From a bacterium (GTDB lineage: Bacteria > Patescibacteriota > Minisyncoccia > Minisyncoccales > GBS-2): a stretch of 64,000 nucleotides of DNA. Below the pieces are notes generated by a model. The model was not told the DNA's origin, ran no database searches, and was given only the letters and a program-made list of their open reading frames with translations. Each line of letters starts with the position of its first letter. Position 1 is the stretch's first letter. The DNA is taken from contig DAIRUS010000001.1 of NCBI GenBank assembly GCA_036803205.1, positions 20,290 through 84,289 of the forward strand, given 5' to 3'. The translations under genes and the position numbers were made by a program. Shown piece by piece: positions 6,239 through 53,128 of the stretch.

Positions 6239-6981
6239 GTTTTTAAAATAAGTTTTTGCTGAATAATGGAATAAAGCGAGCTAACCGACCAATAAAGGGC
6301 AATGGCTGATGGCAATTGAATTAAGATGAAAAAAGAAAAAAAGATTAAAAAATAAGTCATTTGTTTTTGAAATAACTGGGGAAAATTTTTTGAACCAGCT
6401 TCTTTTTTCATTTTTGGTTGAGCGGTCCGCATTTGGAGAAAAGACAAAACGGTTGCCAAAATTATCAAAGGAAAAACTGGCCAATAATAGGTTATTTGGC
6501 TTTCAACGGTTAGACTAAAGGATTTAGAAAGGTCTAAAATCCCTAAAAAGAAGGGGGAAATAGTGGTTGGTTTTGGAACAAAATGATAAAGATTTTTTAG
6601 TTCTAGCTCGGCCAAGCCATTACCAAAGGCTCTTAAAACCAAAAAAAGGGCAATCATTACCGGTATTTGAATCAGAGGAAATAAAAATCCACCAAAGGGG
6701 TTGACTTTTTTCTCTCGCCAAAGTTTAAGCGTTTCTTGAACTTGTTTTTCTTTGTCGCCATTATATTTCTTTTGAATTTCCTGAAGTTGAGGCTGAATTT
6801 CTTGTATTGCCTTCTGAATCTTTAAAGAACGAGTCACAAAAGGATGTAAAATAAGCCTGATAAGAAGGGTTAAAAAAATAATCGCTATTCCCAAATCATG
6901 GCCGGGTAAAAACTGGACAAATAAAATCAAAAGATTAAAGATGGGCCGATAGAATATTGTATTAAAAATTTCTCCAATCAT
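6235..6981 (-). CDS. yidC: membrane protein insertase YidC (short form)
   Basis: Polytopic protein with YidC/Oxa1-like core (PFGGFLFPLIQIPVMIALFLVLR). Lies within rnpA-yidC-jag synteny. Confidence 0.8.
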   Translation of the reverse strand: MIGEIFNTIFYRPIFNLLILFVQFLPGHDLGIAIIFLTLLIRLILHPFVTRSLKIQKAIQEIQPQLQEIQKKYNGDKEKQVQETLKLWREKKVNPFGGFLFPLIQIPVMIALFLVLRAFGNGLAELELKNLYHFVPKPTTISPFFLGILDLSKSFSLTVESQITYYWPVFPLIILATVLSFLQMRTAQPKMKKEAGSKNFPQLFQKQMTYFLIFFSFFILIQLPSAIALYWSVSSLYSIIQQKLILKT

Positions 6982-7313
6982 AGATTAATTTTTTTAAAGA
7001 AATTACTAATTATCTCTTTTATTTCCAAAAATTTTTGATTTTCAATTCCGGGAAGGGCAATGAAAATAGCGTCTATTCCTTTTTTAAAACCCTTTATTTC
7101 TCCCCTGACTGCTTCCGTCATTCTCCTTTTAATTTTATTGCGCAAAACCGCCTTTTTGGAAATTTTTTGAGAGACGATAAAGCCAAATCGGCTATAACCT
7201 AAATTATTTGATAGAAACTTAATAATTAAAAACTTTTCTTTAAAACTTTTTCCTTCTTTAAAGATCTTTTCAAAATCTTTTTTCTTTTTCAATCGATTCT
7301 TCTTTGCTAACAT
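6978..7313 (-). CDS. rnpA: ribonuclease P protein component
   Basis: Basic 111-aa protein, LAKKNRLKKKKDFEKIF...RNKIKRRMTEAVR. Located downstream of rpmH. Confidence 0.8.
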   Translation of the reverse strand: MLAKKNRLKKKKDFEKIFKEGKSFKEKFLIIKFLSNNLGYSRFGFIVSQKISKKAVLRNKIKRRMTEAVRGEIKGFKKGIDAIFIALPGIENQKFLEIKEIISNFFKKINL

Positions 7314-7323
7314 TTTTAGGAGC

Positions 7324-7458
7324 TCAAACTGTTAACCGCCAACGACCTTTCTTTTTTCGACGCAGTAAAACTTTCCTTCCACCAGAAGTAAGCTTTCTTT
7401 TTCTGAAGCCGTGAGTTTTTTTTCTTTTTCTCTTTTTCGGACGATAAGTAATTGACAT
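7324..7458 (-). CDS. rpmH: 50S ribosomal protein L34 (44 aa), absent from the ORF track because it is under 60 aa
   Basis: Manual minus-strand translation gives [44 protein letters not shown], then TGA. This is the canonical L34 sequence and C-terminus, upstream of rnpA. Confidence 0.9.
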
Positions 7459-7491
7459 ATCATCTATTTTACTCCGTCAAAATATTTAAGT

Positions 7492-7500
7492 CAATCCACA
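7492..7500. promoter_or_regulatory. weak DnaA-box-like 9-mer (CAATCCACA, 7/9 to TTATCCACA) in the AT-rich rpmH/dnaA divergent intergenic region
   Basis: Direct sequence match. The region 7459-7604 is AT-rich and lies between rpmH and dnaA. Confidence 0.3.
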
Positions 7501-7604
7501 ATTTTTACCCAGTTTATTAACAAAATTTAGCTTTTTGGCTGTCTTTACTTCTTCTTGACTTTATAATATGATATATAAAGTATTCTTAATTTGGGCTCAC
7601 TCAT

Positions 7605-8960
7605 ATGACCAAAGAAGAACTCTGGCAAGCAGTTTTAGCCCAGATTCAACTAACTATTTCTCCGGCTAATTTTGCTACCTGGTTTAAAGACACGGCAATT
7701 GTTTCCCTTCAAGACGGAGTGGCTTTTATCTCTGTTCCAAATTCTTTCGTTAAAGAATGGCTTGAACAAAAATATAACAAAACTATTTTCAAAATTCTTC
7801 ACAGTTTAGATGAAGGAATTAAAGAGATAAAATACGATTTGGGTAAACCCCGACCAAAAATAATTAAAAAAAGTTTTCCCGTCTTGCCAGAAGAAGGTCA
7901 GTTAGAATTTCCCGAATTTAAAGTTGACAAAGAAACAAATCTTAACCCAAGATATACTTTCGATAATTTTATTGTTGGACCGTGTAATGAATTAGCTCAG
8001 GCTGCCGCCTGGGCTGTCTCCCAAAATCCTGGCCAGATTTACAATCCTCTTTTTATTTACGGTGGAGTTGGCTTAGGAAAAACTCATTTGCTCCAAGCAA
8101 TTGGCAATGAAATAGTTAAAAAATTAAATCAAAGAAAAGTTAGATATGTCCAAACAGAAAAATTTATTTCCAATGTCATTTCAGCCATCCGCAACCACCA
8201 AATCGAACAACTTAAGGCACTATATCAACCGATTGACGTTCTTATTATTGATGATATTCAATTTTTAGCCGGAAAAGAAAAAACTCAAGAAGAGTTTTTT
8301 TATATCTTTAATTCTCTCTATGAAAAAAACAAACAAATCGTTCTTTCTTCCGACCGTTCTCCAAAAGCCATTCCAGCTTTAACCGAAAGGCTAAGGTCTC
8401 GGTTTGAAGGAGGAATGATTGCCGATATTACTTTTCCCGATTTTGAAACCAGGATGGCTATTTTAAAAGCAAAGTGTCAAGAAAGAAAAGGTGAATTTTC
8501 CGATGAAATATTAAATTATATTGCCTCAAATATTCAAAGGAATATTAGAAAATTAGAAGGGGCTTTAAACATTTTACTTGCCCACCGAAAACTTCAAGGA
8601 GATTCGCCCAACCTAGAAACAGCCAAGTCATTACTGAAAGACCTCGTCTTATCTCCAGTAAGAGTTATTAATCCAAAAGAAGTCGTCAGGGCAGTGGCTG
8701 ATTTCTATGATTTAAAGGAAAAAGATCTATTTTCTTCCTCTCGAAAAAAAGAAATTGTCAAACCAAGGCAAATAGCTATGTATCTATTAAGGGAAGAATT
8801 AAAAAACTCTTTCCCTTTTATTGGAAGAAAGTTCGGTGGAAAAGACCACACTACCGCCATTCATGCCTATGAAAAAATCTCCAAAGAAATAGAAAAAAAC
8901 GAAAACCTTCGCGAGGAAATTGCCTTAATTAAACAAAGATTTATTAGTGGAGAAATTTAA
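7605..8960 (+). CDS. dnaA: chromosomal replication initiator protein DnaA
   Basis: AAA+ Walker A GGVGLGKTHLLQAIGNE, Walker B LIIDDIQFL, C-terminal DNA-binding domain. 451 aa. Confidence 0.95.
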   Translation: MTKEELWQAVLAQIQLTISPANFATWFKDTAIVSLQDGVAFISVPNSFVKEWLEQKYNKTIFKILHSLDEGIKEIKYDLGKPRPKIIKKSFPVLPEEGQLEFPEFKVDKETNLNPRYTFDNFIVGPCNELAQAAAWAVSQNPGQIYNPLFIYGGVGLGKTHLLQAIGNEIVKKLNQRKVRYVQTEKFISNVISAIRNHQIEQLKALYQPIDVLIIDDIQFLAGKEKTQEEFFYIFNSLYEKNKQIVLSSDRSPKAIPALTERLRSRFEGGMIADITFPDFETRMAILKAKCQERKGEFSDEILNYIASNIQRNIRKLEGALNILLAHRKLQGDSPNLETAKSLLKDLVLSPVRVINPKEVVRAVADFYDLKEKDLFSSSRKKEIVKPRQIAMYLLREELKNSFPFIGRKFGGKDHTTAIHAYEKISKEIEKNENLREEIALIKQRFISGEI

Positions 8961-9010
8961 AAAAAACAGTGGAAAAAAAGGGTAAAAATATTGGCCGCAA
9001 ATTTCCTAAC

Positions 9011-9043
9011 TTATCAACACTTAATTTCCTTAATTTATCCACA
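9011..9043. promoter_or_regulatory. two DnaA boxes in the dnaA-dnaN intergenic region, candidate oriC element
   Basis: TTATCAACA at 9011-9019 and perfect consensus TTATCCACA at 9035-9043, in the same orientation, within the AT-rich spacer 8961-9108. Confidence 0.7.
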
Positions 9044-9108
9044 CTTTTGTTGGTGTTAAAACAACGTATTTCTCTTAATTTTGTCAAAAACAACAACAAT
9101 TAAACTAT

Positions 9109-10233
9109 ATGAAATTAACAATTCTAAAAGATGTAATGAAAAAAGGTATAGAGGTTGTCGAAAAAATAACTCAAAAAAATCTTACGCTACCTATTCTTCA
9201 AACAACCATTTTTCAAACAGAAAAAAATTTTTTAACTCTCTCATCTACTAATTTAGAAACAGGAGTTATTTGGTGGGGTTTAGCCAGGATAGAAAAAGAA
9301 GGAAAAATTTGTCTACCAACCAAAGTTTTATCTCAACTTATTAGTTTTGTACCGCAAAAATCTATCTCTTTATTTAAAGAAAACTTATCTCTCTGGGTTG
9401 AATGCGAAAATTATAAAACCGAGATTATCGGATTAGACGCGGAAGAATTTCCAATTATTCCAAAAATTCAAACTGAAAATTCCATTTTGGTTGATACCTC
9501 TCTTTTTTGTCAATCTCTTTCTCAAGTTGTTAAAATTCCTTCTCCTTCTACTGCTCGACCGGAAATTTCCGGAGTTCTTTTGAATTTTCAAGAAAATATA
9601 ATCAAAATTGCCGCCACTGATAGTTTCCGTTTAGCCGAGAAAAAATTGTTTTTACCAAACCCTTTTCCTCAAAAACACTCTTTGATTTTACCCCAGAATT
9701 CAGTTAGAGAAATAATTGGCATTTTTGGAGAGTTGGAAGGAGAAATGCGAATTTATATTTCTCCAAAACAAATATGGTTTGAGTCTCTAATGTCGGAAAT
9801 TTCCCACCCTCAAATTCAGTATACTTCTCGTTTGATTGAAGGGGAATATCCAAATTACGAAGAAATTACTCCTAAAAAATTTGGAACCACTGTTTCTCTC
9901 TCAAAAGAGAAATTATTGAACCAGATTAAAACCGCCAGTCTTTTCAGTGGTAAAAACAATGAAATCATAATGAAAATTGACCCAAAAAATGAAACGATAA
10001 CAATCTTAAGTCAAAGTCCTAATTTAGGAAAATACGAAGGTTCTCTTGCCGGAAAGATTAAAGGAGAAAAAGTAGAAATTGCTTTTAACCACCGTTTTTT
10101 AATAGATGGAATTTTAGAAATAAAAAGTCCGGAATTAACCCTTAATCTAACTAATGAAGAAGGTCCAGCCGTTTTAAGACCAGTTGATCTGGAAGATTAT
10201 TTCTATATTCTAATGCCGATTAAAACTATTTAA
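9109..10233 (+). CDS. dnaN: DNA polymerase III beta sliding clamp
   Basis: 374 aa with three-domain clamp architecture, immediately downstream of dnaA. N-terminus MKLTILKDVMKKGIEVVEKI is typical of DnaN. Confidence 0.85.
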   Translation: MKLTILKDVMKKGIEVVEKITQKNLTLPILQTTIFQTEKNFLTLSSTNLETGVIWWGLARIEKEGKICLPTKVLSQLISFVPQKSISLFKENLSLWVECENYKTEIIGLDAEEFPIIPKIQTENSILVDTSLFCQSLSQVVKIPSPSTARPEISGVLLNFQENIIKIAATDSFRLAEKKLFLPNPFPQKHSLILPQNSVREIIGIFGELEGEMRIYISPKQIWFESLMSEISHPQIQYTSRLIEGEYPNYEEITPKKFGTTVSLSKEKLLNQIKTASLFSGKNNEIIMKIDPKNETITILSQSPNLGKYEGSLAGKIKGEKVEIAFNHRFLIDGILEIKSPELTLNLTNEEGPAVLRPVDLEDYFYILMPIKTI

Positions 10234-41631: not shown

Positions 41632-42063
41632 ATGGAGAAATATGAAATTTTAGAACATAGGGCAGATCTAAAAATCAGGATTTTTGGTAAAACCAAAAAA
41701 GAATTATTTCAGAATGCCCTTTTAGGAATGAGTGAAAGTATGAAGGCCGAAATTGAAAGCCCGGCAGAAAAAGTAAAAAGAAAAGTTAGAATAGAATCGT
41801 TTGATTTGCCTTCTTTATTGGTTGATTTTTTAAGCGAGATTCTTTATTTGAGTCAGGTTAATAAAGAGGTCTATTTTGAGGTGAAGTTTAAAAAATTTTT
41901 TGTTCCGTTAACAAGCTCAAGACAGGCTGAAATAGAGTGTGAACTAATCGGTCAAAAAGTAGAGAGATTCGGCAAAGACATAAAGGCGGTGACTTATCAC
42001 GATTTGGACATTCGTCAGAGAAAAAATAAAACCTGGCAGGCAACAGTGCTTTTTGATATATAA
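41632..42063 (+). CDS. archease (RtcB activator)
   Basis: YEILEHRADLKIRIFGKTKKELFQNALLGM matches the archease N-terminus (consensus recalled: [30 protein letters not shown]). 143 aa, upstream of rtcB. Confidence 0.75.
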   Translation: MEKYEILEHRADLKIRIFGKTKKELFQNALLGMSESMKAEIESPAEKVKRKVRIESFDLPSLLVDFLSEILYLSQVNKEVYFEVKFKKFFVPLTSSRQAEIECELIGQKVERFGKDIKAVTYHDLDIRQRKNKTWQATVLFDI

Positions 42064-42192
42064 GTTGGTTTTTAGGTTTAATTTTTTCAATCTCTATTGA
42101 TTTGACTTTCCCACAGGAATACCACAAGATTTTTTAATTGGGCTAGATAAGAAAGCCTTTTCTTTTTAGAAAACTTAAGCTAAAATGGGAAT

Positions 42193-43641
42193 ATGATTTC
42201 AAAAAAAGATTTTAGAAAAATTTCAGAGTTTCTTTGGGAAATTCCAAAAACTTTTAGGGCAAATATGCGAGTTCCGGCAAGAATTTATGTTTCTGAAAAG
42301 ATGTTAGAAGAAGTATTTCGAGATCAATCGATTCCTCAATTAATCAATGGCACCACCCTTCCGGGAATAGTAAAATATGGCATTGCCATGCCTGACTGCC
42401 ATGAAGGATATAGTGTGCCTATCGGATTTGTTGGGGCATTAAGAGTTTCTGACGGAATTATTTCTCCTGGAGCAGCAGGGTTTGATTTGAATTGTGGAAT
42501 GAAACTTTTAAAATCGGAATTATCAGAAAAAGATATAAAGCCATATTTAGAGAAGCTGGCAACAGAAATTCAGAAAGAAGTACCTTCGGGACTTGGCCGA
42601 GGAGGACAAATAAAACTTTCTTTTGAGGAGATTAATAAAATTTTAGAGGGCGGAGCTCAAAAGATGGTCCAACAAGGTTTTGGCGAGAAAGAAGATATAG
42701 AAAATTGTGAATCTCATGGAAGATTAAACTGGGCCGACGCCTCAACTGTTTCTTCGCGAGCTAAAAATCGAGGAAGGGACCAGTTGGGAACCTTGGGAAG
42801 CGGAAATCATTTCCTCGAAATTCAAAAGGTGGCTGAGGTTTTTGATGAGAAAACAGCCGAAGCTTTTGGATTGTTTAAAGACCAAATTGTAACGATGATT
42901 CATACCGGTTCGCGCGGGCTCGGACATCAGGTTTGTACTGATTATTTAAGGGAATTTATTCCGGTAATGGAAAAAAAGTATAAAATCAATGTTCCTGATA
43001 GAGAATTTGCCTGTGTACCATTCAATTCGCCAGAGGGTCGAAGGTATTTTTCAGCTATGGCCTCGGCCGCCAATTATGCCTGGGCTAATCGCCAAATGAT
43101 CGCCCACTTTATTAGAAAAGCCTGGAAGTCAGTTTTGGGTGAGAAAGACAGTTATTTGGTGGCTCTTTATGATGTTGCTCACAATATTATTAAAAAGGAA
43201 AAATATATTATTGATGGTAAAGAAATTGAAGTGATTGTTCATCGTAAAGGATCCACCCGGGCTTTTCCTCCGGGCCACCCGGAAATCCCTGAAAGATATC
43301 GAAATGTCGGTCAACCAGTTTTAATTCCCGGCTCAATGGGAACTGCCTCTTACGTTCTAGTTGGAACCAGAGAAGGAGAGGAAGCTTTTTTCTCGACTTG
43401 TCATGGCGGAGGTCGGACAATGTCTCGACACGAAGCCATGAGACGAGTTTCTGGAAAAGAAGTAGTAAAAAGTTTAGAATCAAAAGGAATTATTGTTAAG
43501 TGCCGGTCTTTGAGGGGTATTGCCGAAGAGGCGCCCCTAGCATATAAAAACATTGATGAGGTAGTAGAGATAGTCCATAATGCTGGTCTATCAAAAAAAG
43601 TAGCAAAATTGATGCCATTGGCAGTAATTAAGGGAGAATAA
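42193..43641 (+). CDS. rtcB: RNA-splicing ligase RtcB
   Basis: RtcB motifs DLNCGM, GSGNHF, HRKGSTRA, plus C-terminal His/Cys metal ligands. 482 aa. Confidence 0.85.
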   Translation: MISKKDFRKISEFLWEIPKTFRANMRVPARIYVSEKMLEEVFRDQSIPQLINGTTLPGIVKYGIAMPDCHEGYSVPIGFVGALRVSDGIISPGAAGFDLNCGMKLLKSELSEKDIKPYLEKLATEIQKEVPSGLGRGGQIKLSFEEINKILEGGAQKMVQQGFGEKEDIENCESHGRLNWADASTVSSRAKNRGRDQLGTLGSGNHFLEIQKVAEVFDEKTAEAFGLFKDQIVTMIHTGSRGLGHQVCTDYLREFIPVMEKKYKINVPDREFACVPFNSPEGRRYFSAMASAANYAWANRQMIAHFIRKAWKSVLGEKDSYLVALYDVAHNIIKKEKYIIDGKEIEVIVHRKGSTRAFPPGHPEIPERYRNVGQPVLIPGSMGTASYVLVGTREGEEAFFSTCHGGGRTMSRHEAMRRVSGKEVVKSLESKGIIVKCRSLRGIAEEAPLAYKNIDEVVEIVHNAGLSKKVAKLMPLAVIKGE

Positions 43642-46108: not shown

Positions 46109-46309
46109 ATGAGCAAAGAAACTCCTAAAAGAAGTCAGATTGAAATACGGAAAAAAAGAAAGAGGAAAGAAAAAATCAAAAAATTGAAGGAAAAATATTT
46201 AGTAGCTCAAACCCAAGAGGAAAAACAAAAAATAATTGAAAAAATTCTAAAAATCGCGCCTCATTATCCAATTGCGGAAATTTTGAAGTTTAATGAATCT
46301 AAAAAGTAA
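46109..46309 (+). CDS. small lysine-rich hypothetical protein (66 aa)
   Basis: ORF only. Overlaps the downstream gene start by 17 nt. Low-complexity basic sequence. Confidence 0.25.
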   Translation: MSKETPKRSQIEIRKKRKRKEKIKKLKEKYLVAQTQEEKQKIIEKILKIAPHYPIAEILKFNESKK

Positions 46310-47141
46310 GGAATTTTTGAATTTTTTTTTCATCGAAGCATTTTTATTTTCCTTAACCTTAATTGCGGGGGTTTTTTCAGCAAAAAGAATTCAAAAATTT
46401 TCTTCTTCACAAGAAATTGAGATACCTCCCGTTTCTCTTTTGTATTTTATTTTAAGCTTTGCTATTGCCACTCTCTTTATTTTTTTGCTTGTTAAATTTT
46501 TAAAGAGAAAATTACTAAAAGGAAAAATTTATAAAACCCTTTTTCTTTTCACTGTTTTTTTGAGCGGATTAACTTTTTTTGAAATTTGGTTTGGCGAACC
46601 TTTAGCTCTCTTTTTAATTTCTCTTTTAATTTTTTGGTGGGTTAAAAAACCAAATGTTTTGAATCAAGACCTTTTGATGGTTTTCGGAATAGCCGGCATT
46701 TCAAGCATTTTAGGATTGGGACTAAAACCAGAGCCAATAGTCTTTATTTTAATTTTATTTTCAATTTATGATTTTGTTGCTGTTTATAAAACGAAACATA
46801 TGGTAGAAATGGCAAAGGAAATGATAGAACAAAAAACAATTTTTGGGTTTGTCATTCCTCAAGATATTTTTTCTTTTAGAGAAAGCTTATTAAATGTTCA
46901 ACCTGGAGGTAAATTTCTTGTTCTAGGAGGAGGAGACGTTGCCCTTCCTCTTTTATTTTCGGTTTCCCTTTTGCCGAGCGGATTCTTAAATTCAATCATT
47001 GTTGCCGCCTTTTCTCTCCTCGGCCTTTTTATCAGTTTCTACATTTTTACCCATCAAAAAGTTCGCCGACCTATCCCCGCTCTTCCCCCAATTGCCTTTT
47101 TTTCAATTATTGGTTTTTTGCTCATAAGAATTTTGTGGTAA
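46293..47141 (+). CDS. presenilin / signal-peptide-peptidase-like GxGD intramembrane aspartyl protease
   Basis: Polytopic protein with motifs in order YD (FSIYDFVAVY), GxGD (LVLGGGDVALPLL), PAL (RPIPALPPIAFF), at spacings matching archaeal presenilin homologs. Confidence 0.6.
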   Translation: MNLKSKEFLNFFFIEAFLFSLTLIAGVFSAKRIQKFSSSQEIEIPPVSLLYFILSFAIATLFIFLLVKFLKRKLLKGKIYKTLFLFTVFLSGLTFFEIWFGEPLALFLISLLIFWWVKKPNVLNQDLLMVFGIAGISSILGLGLKPEPIVFILILFSIYDFVAVYKTKHMVEMAKEMIEQKTIFGFVIPQDIFSFRESLLNVQPGGKFLVLGGGDVALPLLFSVSLLPSGFLNSIIVAAFSLLGLFISFYIFTHQKVRRPIPALPPIAFFSIIGFLLIRILW

Positions 47142-47156
47142 ACTGAAATAATTTCA

Positions 47157-47516
47157 ATGTTGGATAAAAATAAAAAATATCTCCAGATTGCCTTAAATAG
47201 CACTCTTGAGGAGGTAAGAGCAGTTATTAATCAAATTCCCTTAGATGAAAGAATTATTATTGAAACAGGTCTCCCCTGATTAAAGCTCACGGCTCGATGG
47301 AAATTAGGCAAAGAATCAGAAATTCCTTTTCACGAGATTGCCAGGATTAAAAATGAATGCGATATTATGGTAGCTATTGCCGGTGGAGATACCATTCAAG
47401 AAGTTCAACAGGCAACTTTTAATGATACCGACATCGTCGTTTCCTGGAAATCTTTTTACCAAAGGACAACTGAAACCATCCAATTAACCGAGGAGTTTTT
47501 GAAAGAAATTAGATAA
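47157..47516 (+). pseudogene. 3-hexulose-6-phosphate synthase / OMP-decarboxylase-family pseudogene (in-frame TGA plus large internal deletion)
   Basis: N-terminus YLQIALNSTLEEVRAVINQIPLDERIIIETGLP*LK matches HPS LQLALD...VDIVEIGTPVIK. In-frame TGA at 47277-47279. C-terminus IARIKNECDIMVAIAGGDTIQEV...TDIVV matches the HPS C-terminal barrel strands. About 110 aa of the middle is missing. Confidence 0.6.
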
Positions 47517-47559
47517 GAGTAAATTGGAACCTTTTAATAATTCTTTTTTCTTTCAACAA

Positions 47560-48260
47560 TTAAAGATTTTATCCCCTCCAAGATTTCTACCGGCAAAGCA
47601 AAAACTATGGTCTTTGATGGGTCAGTTGAAGTTTGTCAATTGTCTGTAAAGTTCTCAAAGATAATCCACCAGGAATTACTCCTAAAATTTCAGCTGCTTT
47701 TTAAAGATTTTCAGATGCTTTCAGTTCTCCTTCTCATTTAATAATTAAGACCCTTCTTTCTCTTTCAGTTTCTGCCTGAGCAGCCATTGTTCTTTTCATT
47801 GCTGCTGGTAACTTAATGTCTTGCATTTTTATTGCCGTAACATCAATTCCCCAGGGATCAGTTTCTGTATCTACCACTTTTTTGATTTCGCTGGCAATTC
47901 TTTCTCTTTCCGTAAGCAAAGTATCAAGCTCTACTCCACCGACAATGTCTCGCATTGCTGCCAAAGCATATTGCGAGGTGGCATAAGAATAATTCTCAAT
48001 TTTTAAAATAGCATCCTCTGCCCTTATTACTCGAAAATAAACGACTGCATTTATTCCTAATGGAATATTGTCTTTTGTAATGGCCTCTTGGCGAGGAATG
48101 TCAACCGTAGTGATTCTCATGTCAACTTTTATCATTCTTTGAATGCCGGGAAAAATCTAACGGAGTCCGGAAGAACAGTTCTGCTATATTTGCCTAAAGT
48201 TAAAACCACTCCTCTTTCCTATTCATTCACTATCCGTAATCCTCGTAACCAAAAAACTAC
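47560..48260 (-). pseudogene. SPFH/band-7 (stomatin/HflK-like) pseudogene with nonsense codons and frameshifts
   Basis: The ORF at 47734-48135 encodes only the band-7 core (VDMRITTVDIPRQEAITKDNIPLGINAVVYFRV...). Homology continues upstream in another frame (ERGVVLTLGKYSRTVLPDSVRFFPAFKE, across a TAG). Downstream it continues through TGA and TAA (LIIK*EGELKASENL*KAAEILGVIPGGLSLRTLQT), then in a shifted frame (SKTIVFALPVEIL). No TM anchor is present. Confidence 0.7.
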
Positions 48261-48325
48261 CAAAAAAACTAAAAAATATACAAGAATCTTCCCCATTAAT
48301 TTATTAAATTTAAACCAATTTTAGA

Positions 48326-48364: not shown

Positions 48365-48919
48365 ATGCTAAAAAAAGAAGCGTTAGAAAAATTAAATCAA
48401 AAAATTAGAAGTTGCCGAAAATGTCTTTTATGGAGAAAAAGAAAAAATGTTGTCCCGGGAGAAGGATCTGTTGATGGGAAATTAATGTTGATAGCTCAGG
48501 CGCCAGGTATTGAGGAAGATAAATTAGGCGGTCCCTTTGTGGGGCGAGCCGGCAAACTTTTAAATCATTTGTTAAAATTAACCGGCATTAAAAGAGAAAA
48601 AGTTTTTATTACTTCTTGTTTAAAATGTCTTCCCCAACCACCGATAAATAGAAAGCCCAAAAAAGAAGAAATTGAAAACTGCTTGCCTTATTTAAAAAAA
48701 CAAATTGAAATCATCAATCCCAAAAGATTTATTTTATTAGGCGAGGTTGCTTTTTCGGTATTTTTCCCAAATAAAAAGTTAAAAGATTTTCGAGGAAGAT
48801 GGATTAAAAAAGAGGACAAAGAATTTTTTGTTACCTACCATCCGGCGGCTGGTCTTCGCTTTCCGAAAATCAAAAAAATTTTGGAAAAAGATTTTAGAAA
48901 ATTTGTTTCTGGCCATTAA
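48365..48919 (+). CDS. uracil-DNA glycosylase, family 4
   Basis: SCRKCLLWRKRKNVVPGEGSVDGKLMLIAQAPGIEEDKLGGPFVGRAGKLL, the family-4 UDG signature (GEGP/GE.PG..ED..G.PF.G.AG). Confidence 0.8.
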   Translation: MLKKEALEKLNQKIRSCRKCLLWRKRKNVVPGEGSVDGKLMLIAQAPGIEEDKLGGPFVGRAGKLLNHLLKLTGIKREKVFITSCLKCLPQPPINRKPKKEEIENCLPYLKKQIEIINPKRFILLGEVAFSVFFPNKKLKDFRGRWIKKEDKEFFVTYHPAAGLRFPKIKKILEKDFRKFVSGH

Positions 48920-48989
48920 AATTCATTCATTTCTAAAAAAAGACCATCAACACAAGTTCTCAATCCTCTTTTTGTCGTCCAAGAACCAC

Positions 48990-49790
48990 AAAGCCCTATT
49001 CCGCCTTTAGTTAAAAAACTTAAGGCAAAATAAACTCTTTCTTTTGGCAAAAAAATTTTTTCAATTCCAATTGTTTTTTTCAATCATTTCTTTCGGCCCA
49101 CAATTTAAAATAAAATCACCTTCTTTTTTATTTCCTTTCCCAAAAATTTTAGCCCCAAAACTTTATTTATTTTTTCGTCGGCCCCTCTCTTTCTTTTTTT
49201 AAAATAGGCAAAATCCAAATTTCCTAAAAGTTTAGCCAAAGCCCCTCCTTTAGCTAAAGAACCTTTATCAGGAGCTATTACCTGCCAATCTTTTTTATTT
49301 TTAATGATTTTTTTATTGCCATTGAAAAAGGAAAATAAGCCTCAACCTCTATAAGCTTTATTCCGACTTTTTTGTAAAAATTTTTGATGTCTTTGCTATG
49401 GAGGTCGCAGGTAGTTACTTTTTTTGGTGTCAACTGCGGCCAATAATTTTACCAAAAGTTTTTCCGAGATTGGCTCTTTTTTTTCTGGAGTTGTTTTTTT
49501 ATTTTGTCTTGAGGAGGGTAAAGAAGGAAAAATTAAAATAATTTCTTTTACCCCATTTTCTCTAATGGCTTCGATAATTAAAAGAGTTTCTAAAATTGTT
49601 TTATTGGGATTTGGAGTGGTAGTTTGATAAACAAAAATTTTTTCTGGCTAACATTTTCCAAAAGTTGAACGTAAATTTTCCCACAGGCAAATTTTTTGAT
49701 GATAATTTTGCCAAATTTTAAATTTGCCAATTTAGCTAATTTTTCAGCACTCTTTTTATCAGCGCTCCCAGAAAATAAAATTTTTTCCAT
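48990..49790 (-). pseudogene. prs: ribose-phosphate pyrophosphokinase (prs) pseudogene, multiple frameshifts
   Basis: Minus-strand translations in three different frames match Prs in order. N-terminus: KILFSGSADKKSAEKLAKLANLKFGKIIIKKFACGKIYVQLLENVSQKKFLFI (residual ORF 49590-49790). Then ETLLIIEAIRENGVKEIILIFPSLPSSRQNKK, then VTTCDLHSKDIKNFY, then IAPDKGSLAKGGALAKLLGNLDFAYFKKRKRGADEKINKVLG. Low-coordinate boundary is approximate. Confidence 0.7.
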
Positions 49791-49793
49791 TTT

Positions 49794-50174
49794 CTAAACT
49801 GCTTTATTTTTGTTAACTAAATTTTCTATTGCCATTATGGCAACCTCACAATCGGTAATTAAAGGAACCCCTTTTTCTACTGCTTTTTGCCGAATTAATT
49901 TGCCATCGTTTATTTCCTTAAGGCTTTCTTTTTTTCTGCTTGGAATGTTAATAATTAAATCAAACACTCTCTTTTTTAAAAGATCAGCAATACCCAATCC
50001 TTTTTTCTTTTCTTTTTCAGACATTTTGTAGACCCGAAGGGCACGAATTCCATGTCTTTTTAAAAATTTATGAGTACCTCTTGTGGCATAGAGGACATAG
50101 TTTTGGTTTTGGGCTAATTTTTTAATTGACGGAAGCAAGAGTTTCTTATTTTCAATTCTTCCAACGGAAAGCAA
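49794..50174 (-). CDS. stand-alone MGS-like domain protein (CarB C-terminal / PurH N-terminal type fold)
   Basis: NYVLYATRGTHKFLKRHGIRALRVYK...DLIINIPSRKK...IRQKAVEKGVPLITD resembles the methylglyoxal-synthase-like domain (from memory). 126 aa, no fused catalytic domain. Confidence 0.4.
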   Translation of the reverse strand: MLSVGRIENKKLLLPSIKKLAQNQNYVLYATRGTHKFLKRHGIRALRVYKMSEKEKKKGLGIADLLKKRVFDLIINIPSRKKESLKEINDGKLIRQKAVEKGVPLITDCEVAIMAIENLVNKNKAV

Positions 50175-50177
50175 AAT

Positions 50178-51329
50178 TTATTTTGGAAAAAGAGAAAATA
50201 TAGCTGCCTTTCCATATCTTTTTTCATCCCAATCTCCAGTTTGTCTATTTAAGAGTGAAAAAATTGCCACCTTTCTTATGTCTTTTTCACCAAAAAGATA
50301 TTGAAGAAAGCGTTCATTACCAATACCATAACCAGCATGAGGGTTGGTTAGTTTGTTTTTGATGACATTGAGATACCATTCAAAATCACTGTATTCTCCA
50401 CCACGCTCCAAATGTAATTTAAACATCGTAGAGGTTAACAACCTTTCCCTAAGCTTTTCAAAGTTACACTCTCTAACTGCTGAACCTACTCCTTCTCCGG
50501 CATAAGGAAAGATTACATCAGCAGACAAAACCACTCGCGGATCTTTTGTCCAAACCTTCATATTAAAGAATTTAATTTCTTTTGGGTACTTCATAATAAA
50601 AACAGGAGACTCTTTTTTAAGAGAAGAGATTTTTTTCCTAATTGAGCCGTTATTTAAGTATTGAACAATCAGTGCCTCATGTTCAGCCTTTAAATCGTCA
50701 CCAAATTTAATCTTTGGATAACCATTTTTGTTTAATATTTTGATTGCCTCTTCGTAAGTGATTCTTAAAAATGGTCTTTCAACAGCTTCTTTTAATTTTT
50801 GAGTATTACGCCTATAAACCTTTTCTAGTATTTCTTCATAGTTTTTTAAGATATTTTTTATTGCTGATTTGATAGTAGATTCGATGTGATTTAATAAGGT
50901 TTCATACATTTTGTCTTCATCATATTTTTCCCTATTCATTCCAGCCAAGGTGCAATCAAATTCTTCTTCTGTTAGAAGAAATTGTTTTAAATGACGCTTG
51001 TCCTCTTTTTCTTCGTCTCTGCCAGAATGAATGACCGTCCAAACGCCGGGGAAAGATTGAAGCGCTTGTTCAAGATATAGTTGACCAGTTTGGGCAAAAA
51101 AAAGAGGTAAAGAAAGGCGATTATAAATTCTAAATAAAGTATCGATGTTCTCGCAGGCTCCTGTTATACCAACAATAACTGGTACATCAACGTAGGTTAA
51201 GCTTCTTTTTTGAAATTCAAAAAAACAGCCTTCTTTGAAGGCTTGGCTAATTTTTACTAAGTTGGCGAAATGTTTTTTAAACTCGATGTTAATTTCTTTA
51301 TTTTCGACGTTAAGATTAACTTGTGACAT
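50178..51329 (-). CDS. class IIb aminoacyl-tRNA-synthetase-like catalytic core without an anticodon-binding domain (archaeal-type AsnA asparagine-synthetase-like)
   Basis: Motif-2 region FAQTGQLYLEQALQSFPGVWTVIHSGRDEEKEDKRHLKQFLLTEEEF (compare SPQLYKQ...ERVFEI..FRNE...RHL.EF.MLE). Motif 3 HAGYGIGNERFLQYLFG. No N-terminal OB-fold domain. Confidence 0.45.
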   Translation of the reverse strand: MSQVNLNVENKEINIEFKKHFANLVKISQAFKEGCFFEFQKRSLTYVDVPVIVGITGACENIDTLFRIYNRLSLPLFFAQTGQLYLEQALQSFPGVWTVIHSGRDEEKEDKRHLKQFLLTEEEFDCTLAGMNREKYDEDKMYETLLNHIESTIKSAIKNILKNYEEILEKVYRRNTQKLKEAVERPFLRITYEEAIKILNKNGYPKIKFGDDLKAEHEALIVQYLNNGSIRKKISSLKKESPVFIMKYPKEIKFFNMKVWTKDPRVVLSADVIFPYAGEGVGSAVRECNFEKLRERLLTSTMFKLHLERGGEYSDFEWYLNVIKNKLTNPHAGYGIGNERFLQYLFGEKDIRKVAIFSLLNRQTGDWDEKRYGKAAIFSLFPK

Positions 51330-51508
51330 AGGAGCTAAAAATTTCTCCCCTTTGGGAGTAACAGACCTTTAATATAAGTTTTAGATTTTTCCAGCATAAA
51401 AAAAACTGCCCCTTGGGCAATTTTCTGACTTTCGGGTGCGACTTTTTCTTTTTTTGACACATTTTTAAAAATTTTACTCATCCAAGAATTTTTGTCAAGA
51501 GAAGTAAT

Positions 51509-53128
51509 TCACAGTCTTTTTGTCATGTAAGTATTTTTAAGTTTGTATCCCAATTTTCTAAAATATTCTCTTGCCCCGGTACTAGAAATTGCTACCATTT
51601 TTTTTAAGCCAAATTCTTTTTTAGTGATTTTTTCTGCTTCTTTGATTAATTTTTTTCCCAGACCCTGATGTTGGGGAGCGATTTTTTTGACTCCGATTGG
51701 CACTGACTGGCCAAAAGTTTTAATTTCTCGGATTATTGCCGACTCTTTTAATATCGGCAGAACCGATAAAAGCCGGGTTTCTCTTGAAACAAAAGAGGGG
51801 AGGCGAAGACGGATGAGGCTATAAAGCTTTGTTCTATTTTTATTTTCAAAACTGAGAAAAATTTCCTTTCCGCCAGAAGCCTCATAATCCAGGCGGAAAA
51901 AAGACAGCCTTTCTTTTGGGTCATAATTTTCTTTTACTTCTCGACACCTGATGCATTTACATTGCCATTTTTCTTTTTTTATCTCTTTAGCCAAAATTTG
52001 TCGGATGTTAGAAATTTTTGCTCCACCAGCAATGATTTTTTGAGATGGGATATCTCTAGCAATTCTTTGGATTCTGACATAATAAGGAATTTTCTTTTTG
52101 ATTTTTTTTATAAGCTTGAATAAAGTTTTTTTAGAATAAGGCTTATATTTCCCAGTTTGCCACCACTGATAGAGCGGCGCTTCTTTTAATAAAGCGCAGG
52201 GATAGATTTTTAAATAATCTGGCTGAAAATCAGGATTTTGAAATAATTCCTCAAACATTTTTTCATCTTTTTTTACATTGGAGCCCGGCAAATTCGGCAT
52301 TATTTGATACAAAACCTTAAAACCGGCATCTTTTAAAAATTTGGTTGCCAAAATTGTTTCTTTTACGCCGTGTCCTCGTAAATTTAATTTTAAAACATCA
52401 TCATAAATCGACTGAACCCCCAATTCAACCATAGTTATTCCTAATTTCCTCAACCATAAAATTTCTTTTTCGTTTATAAAATCAGGCCTAGTTTCAATAG
52501 ATAATCCAACAATTCTATGCCTTGCCTTTTCATTTAATTTTTGCGCCCTCTCTAATTCCTGTAAAACAAATGCCATGGCATTTATTTTACAGTTGGATGG
52601 ATTTTTGTTGTTGCAGGCTTGGAAACACCTTTTAATAAACCAGGCTTGATATTTTTTGGGATAATAACTCCAGGTTCCACCGACTATTCTCAATTCAATT
52701 TTATCAGTGGGATGTCCTTCATTTTCTAGCGTTTCAATTCTTTTTTTCACTTGTAGATAAGGGTCGTAATTTAATCTTTTTGCCCTTTCGACGGCTGGCT
52801 CTCCAGAAAGATAGCTTTTGGGAATACCTTTTTCAATTGGACAATAAAGACATTTGCCAGGACAGAGATAGGGCTTGGTTAAAACCGAGACATTAACAAT
52901 TCCAGAAAGAGAACGAATTGGTCGCGTTTTAAGTAACCTTTCAATTCTTTCAGATTTTTTAATTCTTTTCTTTCTGAGTAATTTCTGATAAACTCTTAAT
53001 AGCTCGATATTGCTTGGGCAAGAGATTTTATATTTTTTTGTTACTTCTCTCTTTAAAAAATCCAAATCAACCTCATTTTTTATTCGGCTTTTAATTAATT
53101 CGCTGATTACAAGTTCATTAACATTCAT
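51509..53128 (-). CDS. elp3: Elp3-type radical-SAM/GNAT protein (tRNA wobble-uridine carboxymethyl modification enzyme homolog)
   Basis: Radical-SAM cysteine cluster LCPGKCLYCP. Elp3-like core. C-terminal GNAT motif QHQGLGKKLIKEAEKI. 539 aa. Confidence 0.75.
   Translation of the reverse strand: MNVNELVISELIKSRIKNEVDLDFLKREVTKKYKISCPSNIELLRVYQKLLRKKRIKKSERIERLLKTRPIRSLSGIVNVSVLTKPYLCPGKCLYCPIEKGIPKSYLSGEPAVERAKRLNYDPYLQVKKRIETLENEGHPTDKIELRIVGGTWSYYPKKYQAWFIKRCFQACNNKNPSNCKINAMAFVLQELERAQKLNEKARHRIVGLSIETRPDFINEKEILWLRKLGITMVELGVQSIYDDVLKLNLRGHGVKETILATKFLKDAGFKVLYQIMPNLPGSNVKKDEKMFEELFQNPDFQPDYLKIYPCALLKEAPLYQWWQTGKYKPYSKKTLFKLIKKIKKKIPYYVRIQRIARDIPSQKIIAGGAKISNIRQILAKEIKKEKWQCKCIRCREVKENYDPKERLSFFRLDYEASGGKEIFLSFENKNRTKLYSLIRLRLPSFVSRETRLLSVLPILKESAIIREIKTFGQSVPIGVKKIAPQHQGLGKKLIKEAEKITKKEFGLKKMVAISSTGAREYFRKLGYKLKNTYMTKRL

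Follow-up and report, generated by a model that had tools for sequence, protein, structure and literature searches.

Reductive genome evolution that proceeds through pseudogenes and operon deletions is familiar from Mycobacterium leprae, Rickettsia and recently host-restricted insect symbionts. Among the CPR bacteria, genome size is typically around 1 Mb. The CPR/Patescibacteria are reported to have a reduced metabolic capacity (PMC9166423; PMC5113843). Their genomes are densely coding, which has been taken to mean that pseudogenes are few (PMC9166423), and they differ from one another in their PRPP and nucleoside metabolism (PMC5113843). The locus described here lies in a 64-kb stretch of a CPR contig (64,000 nt, GC content of 34.5%; hereafter the window), and literature searches found no published description of it. 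It contains a broken gene for ribose-phosphate pyrophosphokinase (prs), which is very probably a recently inactivated remnant bordering a deletion in which a CPR pyrimidine de novo operon was lost. The first-pass annotation of this DNA had noted the decayed prs gene and missed the larger event, a ~3.2-kb prs-pyrE-pyrF-pyrD/K deletion accompanied by two nearby pseudogenes.

Identity and extent of the prs remnant

The prs remnant occupies 49108..49790 on the minus strand. By frameshift-aware and DNA alignment, it matches codons 1-234 of prs in a syntenic relative, L003 (GCA_900174595.1), where the gene is intact and encodes 312 aa; ~228 remnant codons share 61% amino acid identity with this protein. 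The Pfam family Pribosyltran_N (PF13793) matches two fragments that lie in different frames (E=3.6e-06 for the first and 2.9e-14 for the second), and the hand-stitched prs sequence matches it with an E value of 9.8e-25 (87 bits, cut-off 25), consistent with one domain split over two frames. A Prs HMM run against the six-frame stop-to-stop segments of the whole window detects four adjacent fragments only, at 49793-49108. The corrected prs frame comprises 226 codons and 0 stops, whereas the other two frames contain 19 stops each; together with the Prs matches, this places the homology far beyond chance. With the stitched remnant as the query, a large protein search retrieved only eight relatives, and the best Prs relatives are P0001 (GCA_900174595.1; 312 aa, 61% identity) and P0002 (MBT9174074.1; 306 aa, 50%), both from loci syntenic with the window. 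A metagenome scan for nearer relatives returned a single locus, L095, which at 49% identity is no closer than L003. Rfam and tRNA scans of the prs region gave no matches.

The gene is broken by three 1-nt indels, all at or next to A6-A7 runs, as located by frameshift-aware alignment to P0001 and P0002 and by a three-way DNA alignment. On the minus strand, these lesions leave in-frame segments at 49790-49638, 49635-49426, 49424-49308 and 49305-49108. At 49636..49637, one nucleotide is missing at an AAAAAA/TTTTT (A6/T5) junction and two orphan bases are left. At 49425, one nucleotide has been gained adjoining an A7 run, such that the window reads ACCAAAAAAAGTAAC where L003 reads AAAAAAA-TAAT. 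At 49306..49307, one nucleotide is missing after an A7 run (AATAAAAAAA-TCATT). The longest ORF that starts at the ATG at 49790 (minus strand) encodes 66 aa, MEKILFSGSADKK…KKFACGKIYVQLLENVSQKK, and gene callers annotate a 66-aa 'Pribosyltran_N' protein at this site. In three-frame translation, the prs-like stretches switch back and forth between two minus-strand frames; the third frame that had been counted earlier belongs to a remnant of the pyrD-pyrK fusion gene (pyrD/K). The original diagnosis of a decayed ribose-phosphate pyrophosphokinase gene is upheld by the PF13793 matches to the fragments and the stitched sequence, by the 61% identity to P0001 and by the three frameshifts. The extent then assigned to it, 48990-49790, needs to be divided: 49108-49790 is prs, and 48990-49107 is the tail of pyrD/K (tblastn E=3e-17).

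Four conserved Prs blocks had been reported from this stretch. The N-terminal region, SLPSSRQNKK (49524-49495) and CDLHS (49409-49395) are found at the described places, and the pyrophosphate loop APDKGS (49275-49258) is also kept. The SLPSSRQNKK segment was, however, mistaken for a decayed loop, as the Prs of intact relatives carries an identical SRQNKK, which is a native motif of that clade. The fourth block, the PRPP-binding loop, is absent. The homology to Prs stops sharply at …KKKVILF (49128-49108) and is followed by a TAA at 49107-49105; in the alignments, neither the loop DDMVDTGET, which is the PRPP/ribose-5-phosphate loop of the intact relatives, nor the C-terminal ~78 codons have a counterpart in the remnant. 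For the fragment before the junction, Pfam gives a weak and partial match to PF00156 (E=0.023). Instead of a single uninterrupted Prs ORF of ~290-320 aa, the locus holds three frameshifts and then the TAA, and where a C-terminal PRTase-type domain with its DDxxDTGxT loop (PF00156/PF14572) would be encoded, the DNA is the pyrD/K tail. Because the C-terminal domain is missing, PRPP synthetase activity would not be expected from the remnant.

Two other accounts of the end of the stub were rejected. The stretch past 49108 does not represent a heavily mutated Prs C-terminus: frameshift-aware alignment there yields noise, and the sequence is the pyrD/K tail. An alternative genetic code or stop recoding is contradicted by the TAA and TGA at the stub end, which coincide with the end of homology, and by the surrounding genes, which read normally in table 11.

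The deletion junction and the intact operon in relatives

The relative L003 shares the order of the window flank (MJ0043_C, MgtC, methyltransferase and Elp3-like radical-SAM genes). In L003 these genes are followed by an AsnRS-like/MGS fusion (504 aa), prs (312), pyrE (228), pyrF (299) and a pyrD-pyrK fusion (522), beyond which lie a convergent uracil-DNA glycosylase gene (UDG), a Band_7 gene (258) and an OMPdecase-family gene (255). A second relative, L004, has the order pyrC, pyrB/I, an OTCase-like gene, prs, pyrE, pyrF, pyrD/K, UDG and SPP; the order in L095 is similar, and prs, pyrE, pyrF and pyrD/K are all intact in L003, L004 and L095. With NCBIfam models, L003 prs reaches 216 bits for TIGR01251 (cut-off 113) and L003 pyrF reaches 282 bits for TIGR02127 (cut-off 110.6). 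The best match of L003 pyrE is pyrE, below its cut-off, and pyrD and pyrK are the best models for L003 pyrD/K, also below their cut-offs, with Pfam DHO_dh and DHODB_Fe-S_bind above theirs.

Several observations concern these relatives in their own right. The L004 contig (GCA_018725565.1, QLUR01000047.1) is labelled Syntrophomonadaceae/Bacillota. In gene order, and at 50-81% amino acid identity, its prs, pyr, UDG and SPP genes agree with the CPR clade, and the contig is probably mis-binned. In L004 (271-1098), L095 (1220-2032) and L048 (7536-8201), pyrB/pyrI is adjoined by a gene for a short ~275-aa protein with no significant Pfam match. On the basis of a PDB sequence match to 3d6n (E=2.5e-31), this protein is predicted to be a dihydroorotase, a compact PyrC missed by profile annotation; the 5' end of the L004 ORF may be incompletely delimited. 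Directly 3' of the pyr-prs operon of a Beckwithbacteria relative, at L023 15031-15654 (minus strand), lies an IS200-like (Y1_Tnp) transposase gene, so that in this relative a mobile element adjoins the same operon that was lost from the window lineage.

Comparison of L003 with the window by blastn aligns L003 1991-8702 with window 55772-49108 and L003 11887-12618 with window 49131-48383. Between L003 8702 and 11887, ~3.2 kb has been deleted, which in L003 holds the 3' end of prs, the whole of pyrE and pyrF and ~455 codons of pyrD/K, and prs codon ~234 is joined to pyrD/K codon ~458. The junction (49108..49120, minus strand) falls in an A-rich/TTATTT stretch, and the two L003 breakpoints resemble each other in this sequence. 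Its ten bases GATTTTATTT are read doubly, as VILF of prs and as DFIL of pyrD/K: the sequence reads …KKKVILF in the prs frame (49128-49108) and DFILNCGP in the pyrD/K frame (49117-49094). Given these similar short A/T-rich stretches at the breakpoints, the deletion was probably mediated by microhomology. A reading of the L003/L004 operon as a lineage-specific insertion is contradicted by the two gene stubs at the window junction.

The second of these stubs is the 3' remnant of the pyrD-pyrK fusion, the gene for dihydroorotate dehydrogenase B. It spans 48916..49117 on the minus strand and consists of the last ~65 codons plus the stop, from the electron-transfer/Fe-S domain. By tblastn, residues 468-522 of L003 PyrDK (the last 55) match window 49083-48919 at 64% identity (E=3e-17), and the L004 PyrDK tail matches the same region with an E value of 1.6e-16. 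In a DNA alignment, the homology extends upstream of 49083 in another frame, as DFILNCGPKEM, and the remnant carries its own +1 frameshift near 49080. Two of the four Fe-S cysteines are replaced, C to G and C to W (KGGIGLCGSWTT vs KCGVGICGSCAT). The remnant thus falls short of a functional PyrD-PyrK, which would have a DHO_dh domain and a complete PyrK with four Fe-S cysteines.

The divergence between the prs stub and L003 is 0.24, 0.21 and 0.42 at codon positions 1, 2 and 3, respectively. Because third positions dominate and in-frame stops are absent, most of this divergence appears to predate inactivation, which would make the pseudogene young. The ratio of the mean first- and second-position divergence to the third-position divergence is 0.53 for the prs stub and 0.26-0.46 for neighbouring genes. 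When unique amino acid changes were counted in the window and in L003 with L004 as the outgroup, 30 vs 17 were found for prs (p=0.058) and 13 vs 4 for the pyrD/K tail (p=0.029), and the intact UDG control gave 10 vs 13. Overall, this is a modest signal of relaxed constraint on the window branch, and it may partly reflect a fast-evolving Prs clade. The closest intact relative has only ~75% DNA identity to the window, too little to order or date the lesions.

Genes that flank the remnants

Upstream of the prs remnant, on the minus strand, lie genes for a 383-aa AsnRS-core-like protein (50178-51329) and a 126-aa MGS-like domain (49794-50174). In L003 and most relatives these two form one ORF (504 aa in L003), which is the first gene of the operon there. 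In the window, they are split by an in-frame TAA at 50178-50180 (minus strand), where L003 has a His codon, and the MGS-like ORF has a TTG start one codon past this stop. The TAA is present in every assembly of the window strain and may be either a tolerated gene split or an early step of pseudogenisation; the split coincides with the loss of the pyr genes. The AsnRS-like protein has the PF00152 catalytic core and no anticodon-binding domain, and its MGS partner is of the CarB type (carbamoyl-phosphate-synthetase type). Its closest PDB entries are AsnRS structures (e.g. 1x54, E=2.6e-29), and it reaches the cut-off of none of the NCBIfam asnS/asnA models.

Elsewhere, the AsnRS-like/MGS gene is found at L003 6497-8011, L023 10001-11488 and L034 9944-11446, as well as in many of L005-L084. 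The nearest loci by this neighbour come from MAGs labelled Roizmanbacteria, Beckwithbacteria, Microgenomates, Gottesmanbacteria and Patescibacteria, among similar names. In ~23 of 82 loci, the AsnRS-like gene stands directly upstream of pyrD, pyrE, pyrF, prs or pyrG, and it is also found with HPS-PHI in L034; loci with the pyr pairing include CPR bacteria as well as contigs that bear the labels Hymenobacter, Armatimonadetes and Pseudobacteriovorax. In many relatives, the AsnRS-like gene is retained with no pyr gene within 10 kb, which makes the association patchy in the group. Literature searches found no published description of the fusion. The protein may act as an enzyme linked to pyrimidine metabolism or as an Asn synthetase under nucleotide control; a more specific proposal, tentative and rather doubtful, is that it represents an uncharacterised adenylate-forming enzyme with a pyrimidine link and not simply an asparagine synthetase. 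The idea that it substitutes for dihydroorotase in an ATP-dependent manner is weakened by L004, L095 and L048, which encode the short dihydroorotase together with pyrB/pyrI.

On the far side of the deleted operon lies the intact gene for a family-4 uracil-DNA glycosylase (48365..48919, plus strand; NCBIfam TIGR00758, 167 bits vs a cut-off of 125), which is convergent with the remnants and occupies the same position in L003 and L004. In the JGI 3300010288 variant (L093), one extra T is present in a T-run of this gene at window 48701, with five SNPs nearby, and the gene caller gives only 114 aa; this could be an early sign of UDG decay in the JGI population or an assembly error.

Two further dead genes follow, both within 2 kb of the prs remnant. 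An SPFH/Band_7 pseudogene (47537..48311, minus strand) shares 83% identity with its intact L003 counterpart (258 aa) and contains four in-frame stops (48221, 48159, 47736 and 47703) and two frameshifts (~48173 and ~47625). The same contig encodes a second, intact Band_7 protein of 390 aa ~10 kb before the window begins (L096 2821-3993 on the ENA contig), and with this paralogue present the decayed copy may have been expendable. A 3-hexulose-6-phosphate-synthase-like pseudogene of the OMPdecase/HUMPS family (HPS-like; 47157..47516, plus strand) is intact in L003 (255 aa), where the homologue is closest to 3-hexulose-6-phosphate synthase, below the curated cut-off. The pseudogene keeps codons 1-43 and 189-255; ~145 codons (~44-188) are deleted, with a TGA at the junction (47277). 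Its joint loss with prs and the pyr genes would make metabolic sense along a route from pentose phosphate to PRPP to UMP, since HPS and PHI share a cluster with pyrD, pyrF and pyrG in L034 (AsnRS-like/MGS-pyrD-pyrF-HPS-PHI-pyrG-PRTase).

Decay is limited to ~3 kb. In the rest of the 64-kb window, the ORFs are long and dense, and genes syntenic with L003 are of full length. The window also carries dnaA, dnaN, rnpA, yidC, PBP, type-IV-secretion-pilin-like (PF18895) and T4SS-like genes. It includes a replication-origin-type set (rnpA, yidC, jag / dnaA, dnaN) and archaeal-flavoured genes (presenilin-like SPP, Elp3-like radical-SAM, MJ0043_C, and archease with RtcB), which together lie at ~6980-10233, 46293-47141, 51509-53128 and 41632-43641. 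The organism is a CPR (Patescibacteria) bacterium, probably Microgenomates-like. A DPANN archaeon, which the Elp3-like, SPP and MJ0043_C genes might suggest, is rejected on account of dnaA, dnaN, rnpA, yidC and the PBP gene and because the closest loci belong to CPR bacteria.

Interpretation and comparison with known systems

All three prs indels lie in a classic error context, at or next to A6-A7 runs, and the first-pass annotation had allowed that homopolymer errors might hide an intact ~310-aa ORF. Such an artefact, with prs intact in the organism, is exceedingly improbable. Four further assemblies, each from a different sample (ENA ERZ27245459, Logan SRR5214706, JGI 3300010288 and ENA ERZ1744544), match region 48920-49790 with 100% identity; the window is itself a separate assembly at NCBI, and different assemblers were used, judging by the contig naming. 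Each of two small ORFs, the 126-aa neighbour and the 66-aa stub, occurs on four or five contigs of those four assemblies. Outside the remnant, SNPs or indels distinguish at least three of the four from the window: the ERZ27245459 contig at 51405, 50921, 47285 and 46068, the Logan contig at 50921 and the JGI strain at six sites. Because the remnant is identical across assemblies that differ elsewhere, the lesions are real: they have become fixed in a natural population, and homopolymer miscalls are excluded as their source. Moreover, indel correction cannot restore a ~310-aa ORF, because the catalytic C-terminal part has been physically deleted: the corrected ORF still ends at the TAA at 49107-49105 and still lacks the DDMVDTGET loop and the ~78 C-terminal codons. 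Scarcely more credible is continued expression of prs, whether through programmed frameshifting, transcriptional slippage or a phase-variable switch, or as a truncated N-terminal-domain regulatory protein. Poly-A runs can support slippage, and the 226 corrected codons contain 0 stops, but recent inactivation explains the lack of stops equally well. Expression would need three independent corrections in alternating directions and would yield a product without the catalytic PRTase-type domain that ends in out-of-frame pyrD/K sequence; in addition, the downstream partner genes are gone.

A different question is whether the decayed gene was a redundant copy, with a canonical-type prs elsewhere in the genome serving salvage phosphoribosyltransferases or NAD synthesis, such that PRPP synthesis is kept. 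This is compatible with a recently inactivated remnant at the edge of an operon deletion and differs from it only in the physiological consequence; we regard it as possible, if unlikely. In its favour, five Microgenomates-like loci (L016, L018, L023, L043 and L044) carry a prs that is only 28-33% identical to the L003 type, so that two Prs types circulate in the group. Against it, no second Prs was detected by HMM in the window or by Pfam in ~83 kb of the contig, and each relative has one prs only within the stretch examined. Across the same ~83 kb, no member of a Prs or phosphoribosyltransferase family was seen (Pfam, and the Prs HMM over the 64-kb window).

The locus is a genuine young pseudogene cluster that combines a unitary pseudogene with an operon deletion, that is, ordinary gene loss. 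The disabling lesions are reproduced in the four other assemblies, and an intact orthologue is present in synteny (the 312-aa prs of L003 with the same flanks, and the intact prs of L004 and L095). The ancestor had the order [AsnRS-like/MGS]-prs-pyrE-pyrF-pyrD/K followed by the convergent UDG gene, as is intact in L003 and, from prs to UDG, in L004. A ~3.2-kb deletion in the window lineage fused prs codon ~234 to pyrD/K codon ~458; Prs thereby lost its ribose-5-phosphate/PRPP loop and its C-terminal domain, pyrE and pyrF disappeared entirely, and little of pyrD/K was left. The three poly-A indels in the prs stub, the one in the pyrD/K stub and the loss of Fe-S cysteines make up the rest of the decay. 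From these sequences we infer that the operon no longer yields PRPP, OMP or UMP and that the prs remnant itself is without function. The organism, a tiny CPR bacterium that is probably host-dependent, would no longer make UMP de novo, at least by way of this operon, and would have to import its pyrimidines in the form of nucleotides, nucleosides or bases, which agrees with the reduced metabolism generally reported for CPR bacteria. The locus may document how a CPR lineage recently became wholly dependent on external pyrimidines across its population. The earlier premise that Prs is near-universal is a weak one here, given that CPR metabolism is reduced (PMC9166423; PMC5113843) and that many relatives are without pyr genes beside the AsnRS-like neighbour.

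As a clean example of a CPR bacterium shedding a biosynthetic module, through a deletion, homopolymer indels and the loss of neighbours, the locus leaves the general picture unchanged. Its value lies in the intermediates, which show the mechanism and direction of gene loss in a group usually described as already streamlined. It also advises caution in automated metabolic reconstruction, where the 66-aa 'Pribosyltran_N' stub could be scored as Prs.

Compared with known families, the remnant is closest to class I-like Prs (TIGR01251; PF13793 with PF00156/PF14572), in the divergent clade of P0001 and P0002 (50-61% identity), with which it shares the N-terminal domain, the SRQNKK segment, (C)xLHS and APDKGS. 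In contrast to functional class I-like Prs, it has no continuous ORF, and the ribose-5-phosphate/PRPP loop and C-terminal domain are deleted; judged from its sequence, it would be unable to act as a functional member of the family. With phase-variable contingency genes the locus has in common the indels at poly-A tracts, but it differs from them in combining three indels with an irreversible 3.2-kb deletion and in showing no variation in tract length at the prs lesions across five assemblies. The closer likeness is to reductive evolution in host-restricted bacteria, in which homopolymer indels, nonsense mutations and deletions between short similar sequences likewise occur and functionally linked genes are lost together. 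Unlike in those bacteria, decay is here confined to ~3 kb of an otherwise intact and dense 64-kb window, and since CPR genomes are reported to have a high coding density and few pseudogenes (PMC9166423), a cluster caught mid-decay is somewhat unusual for this group.
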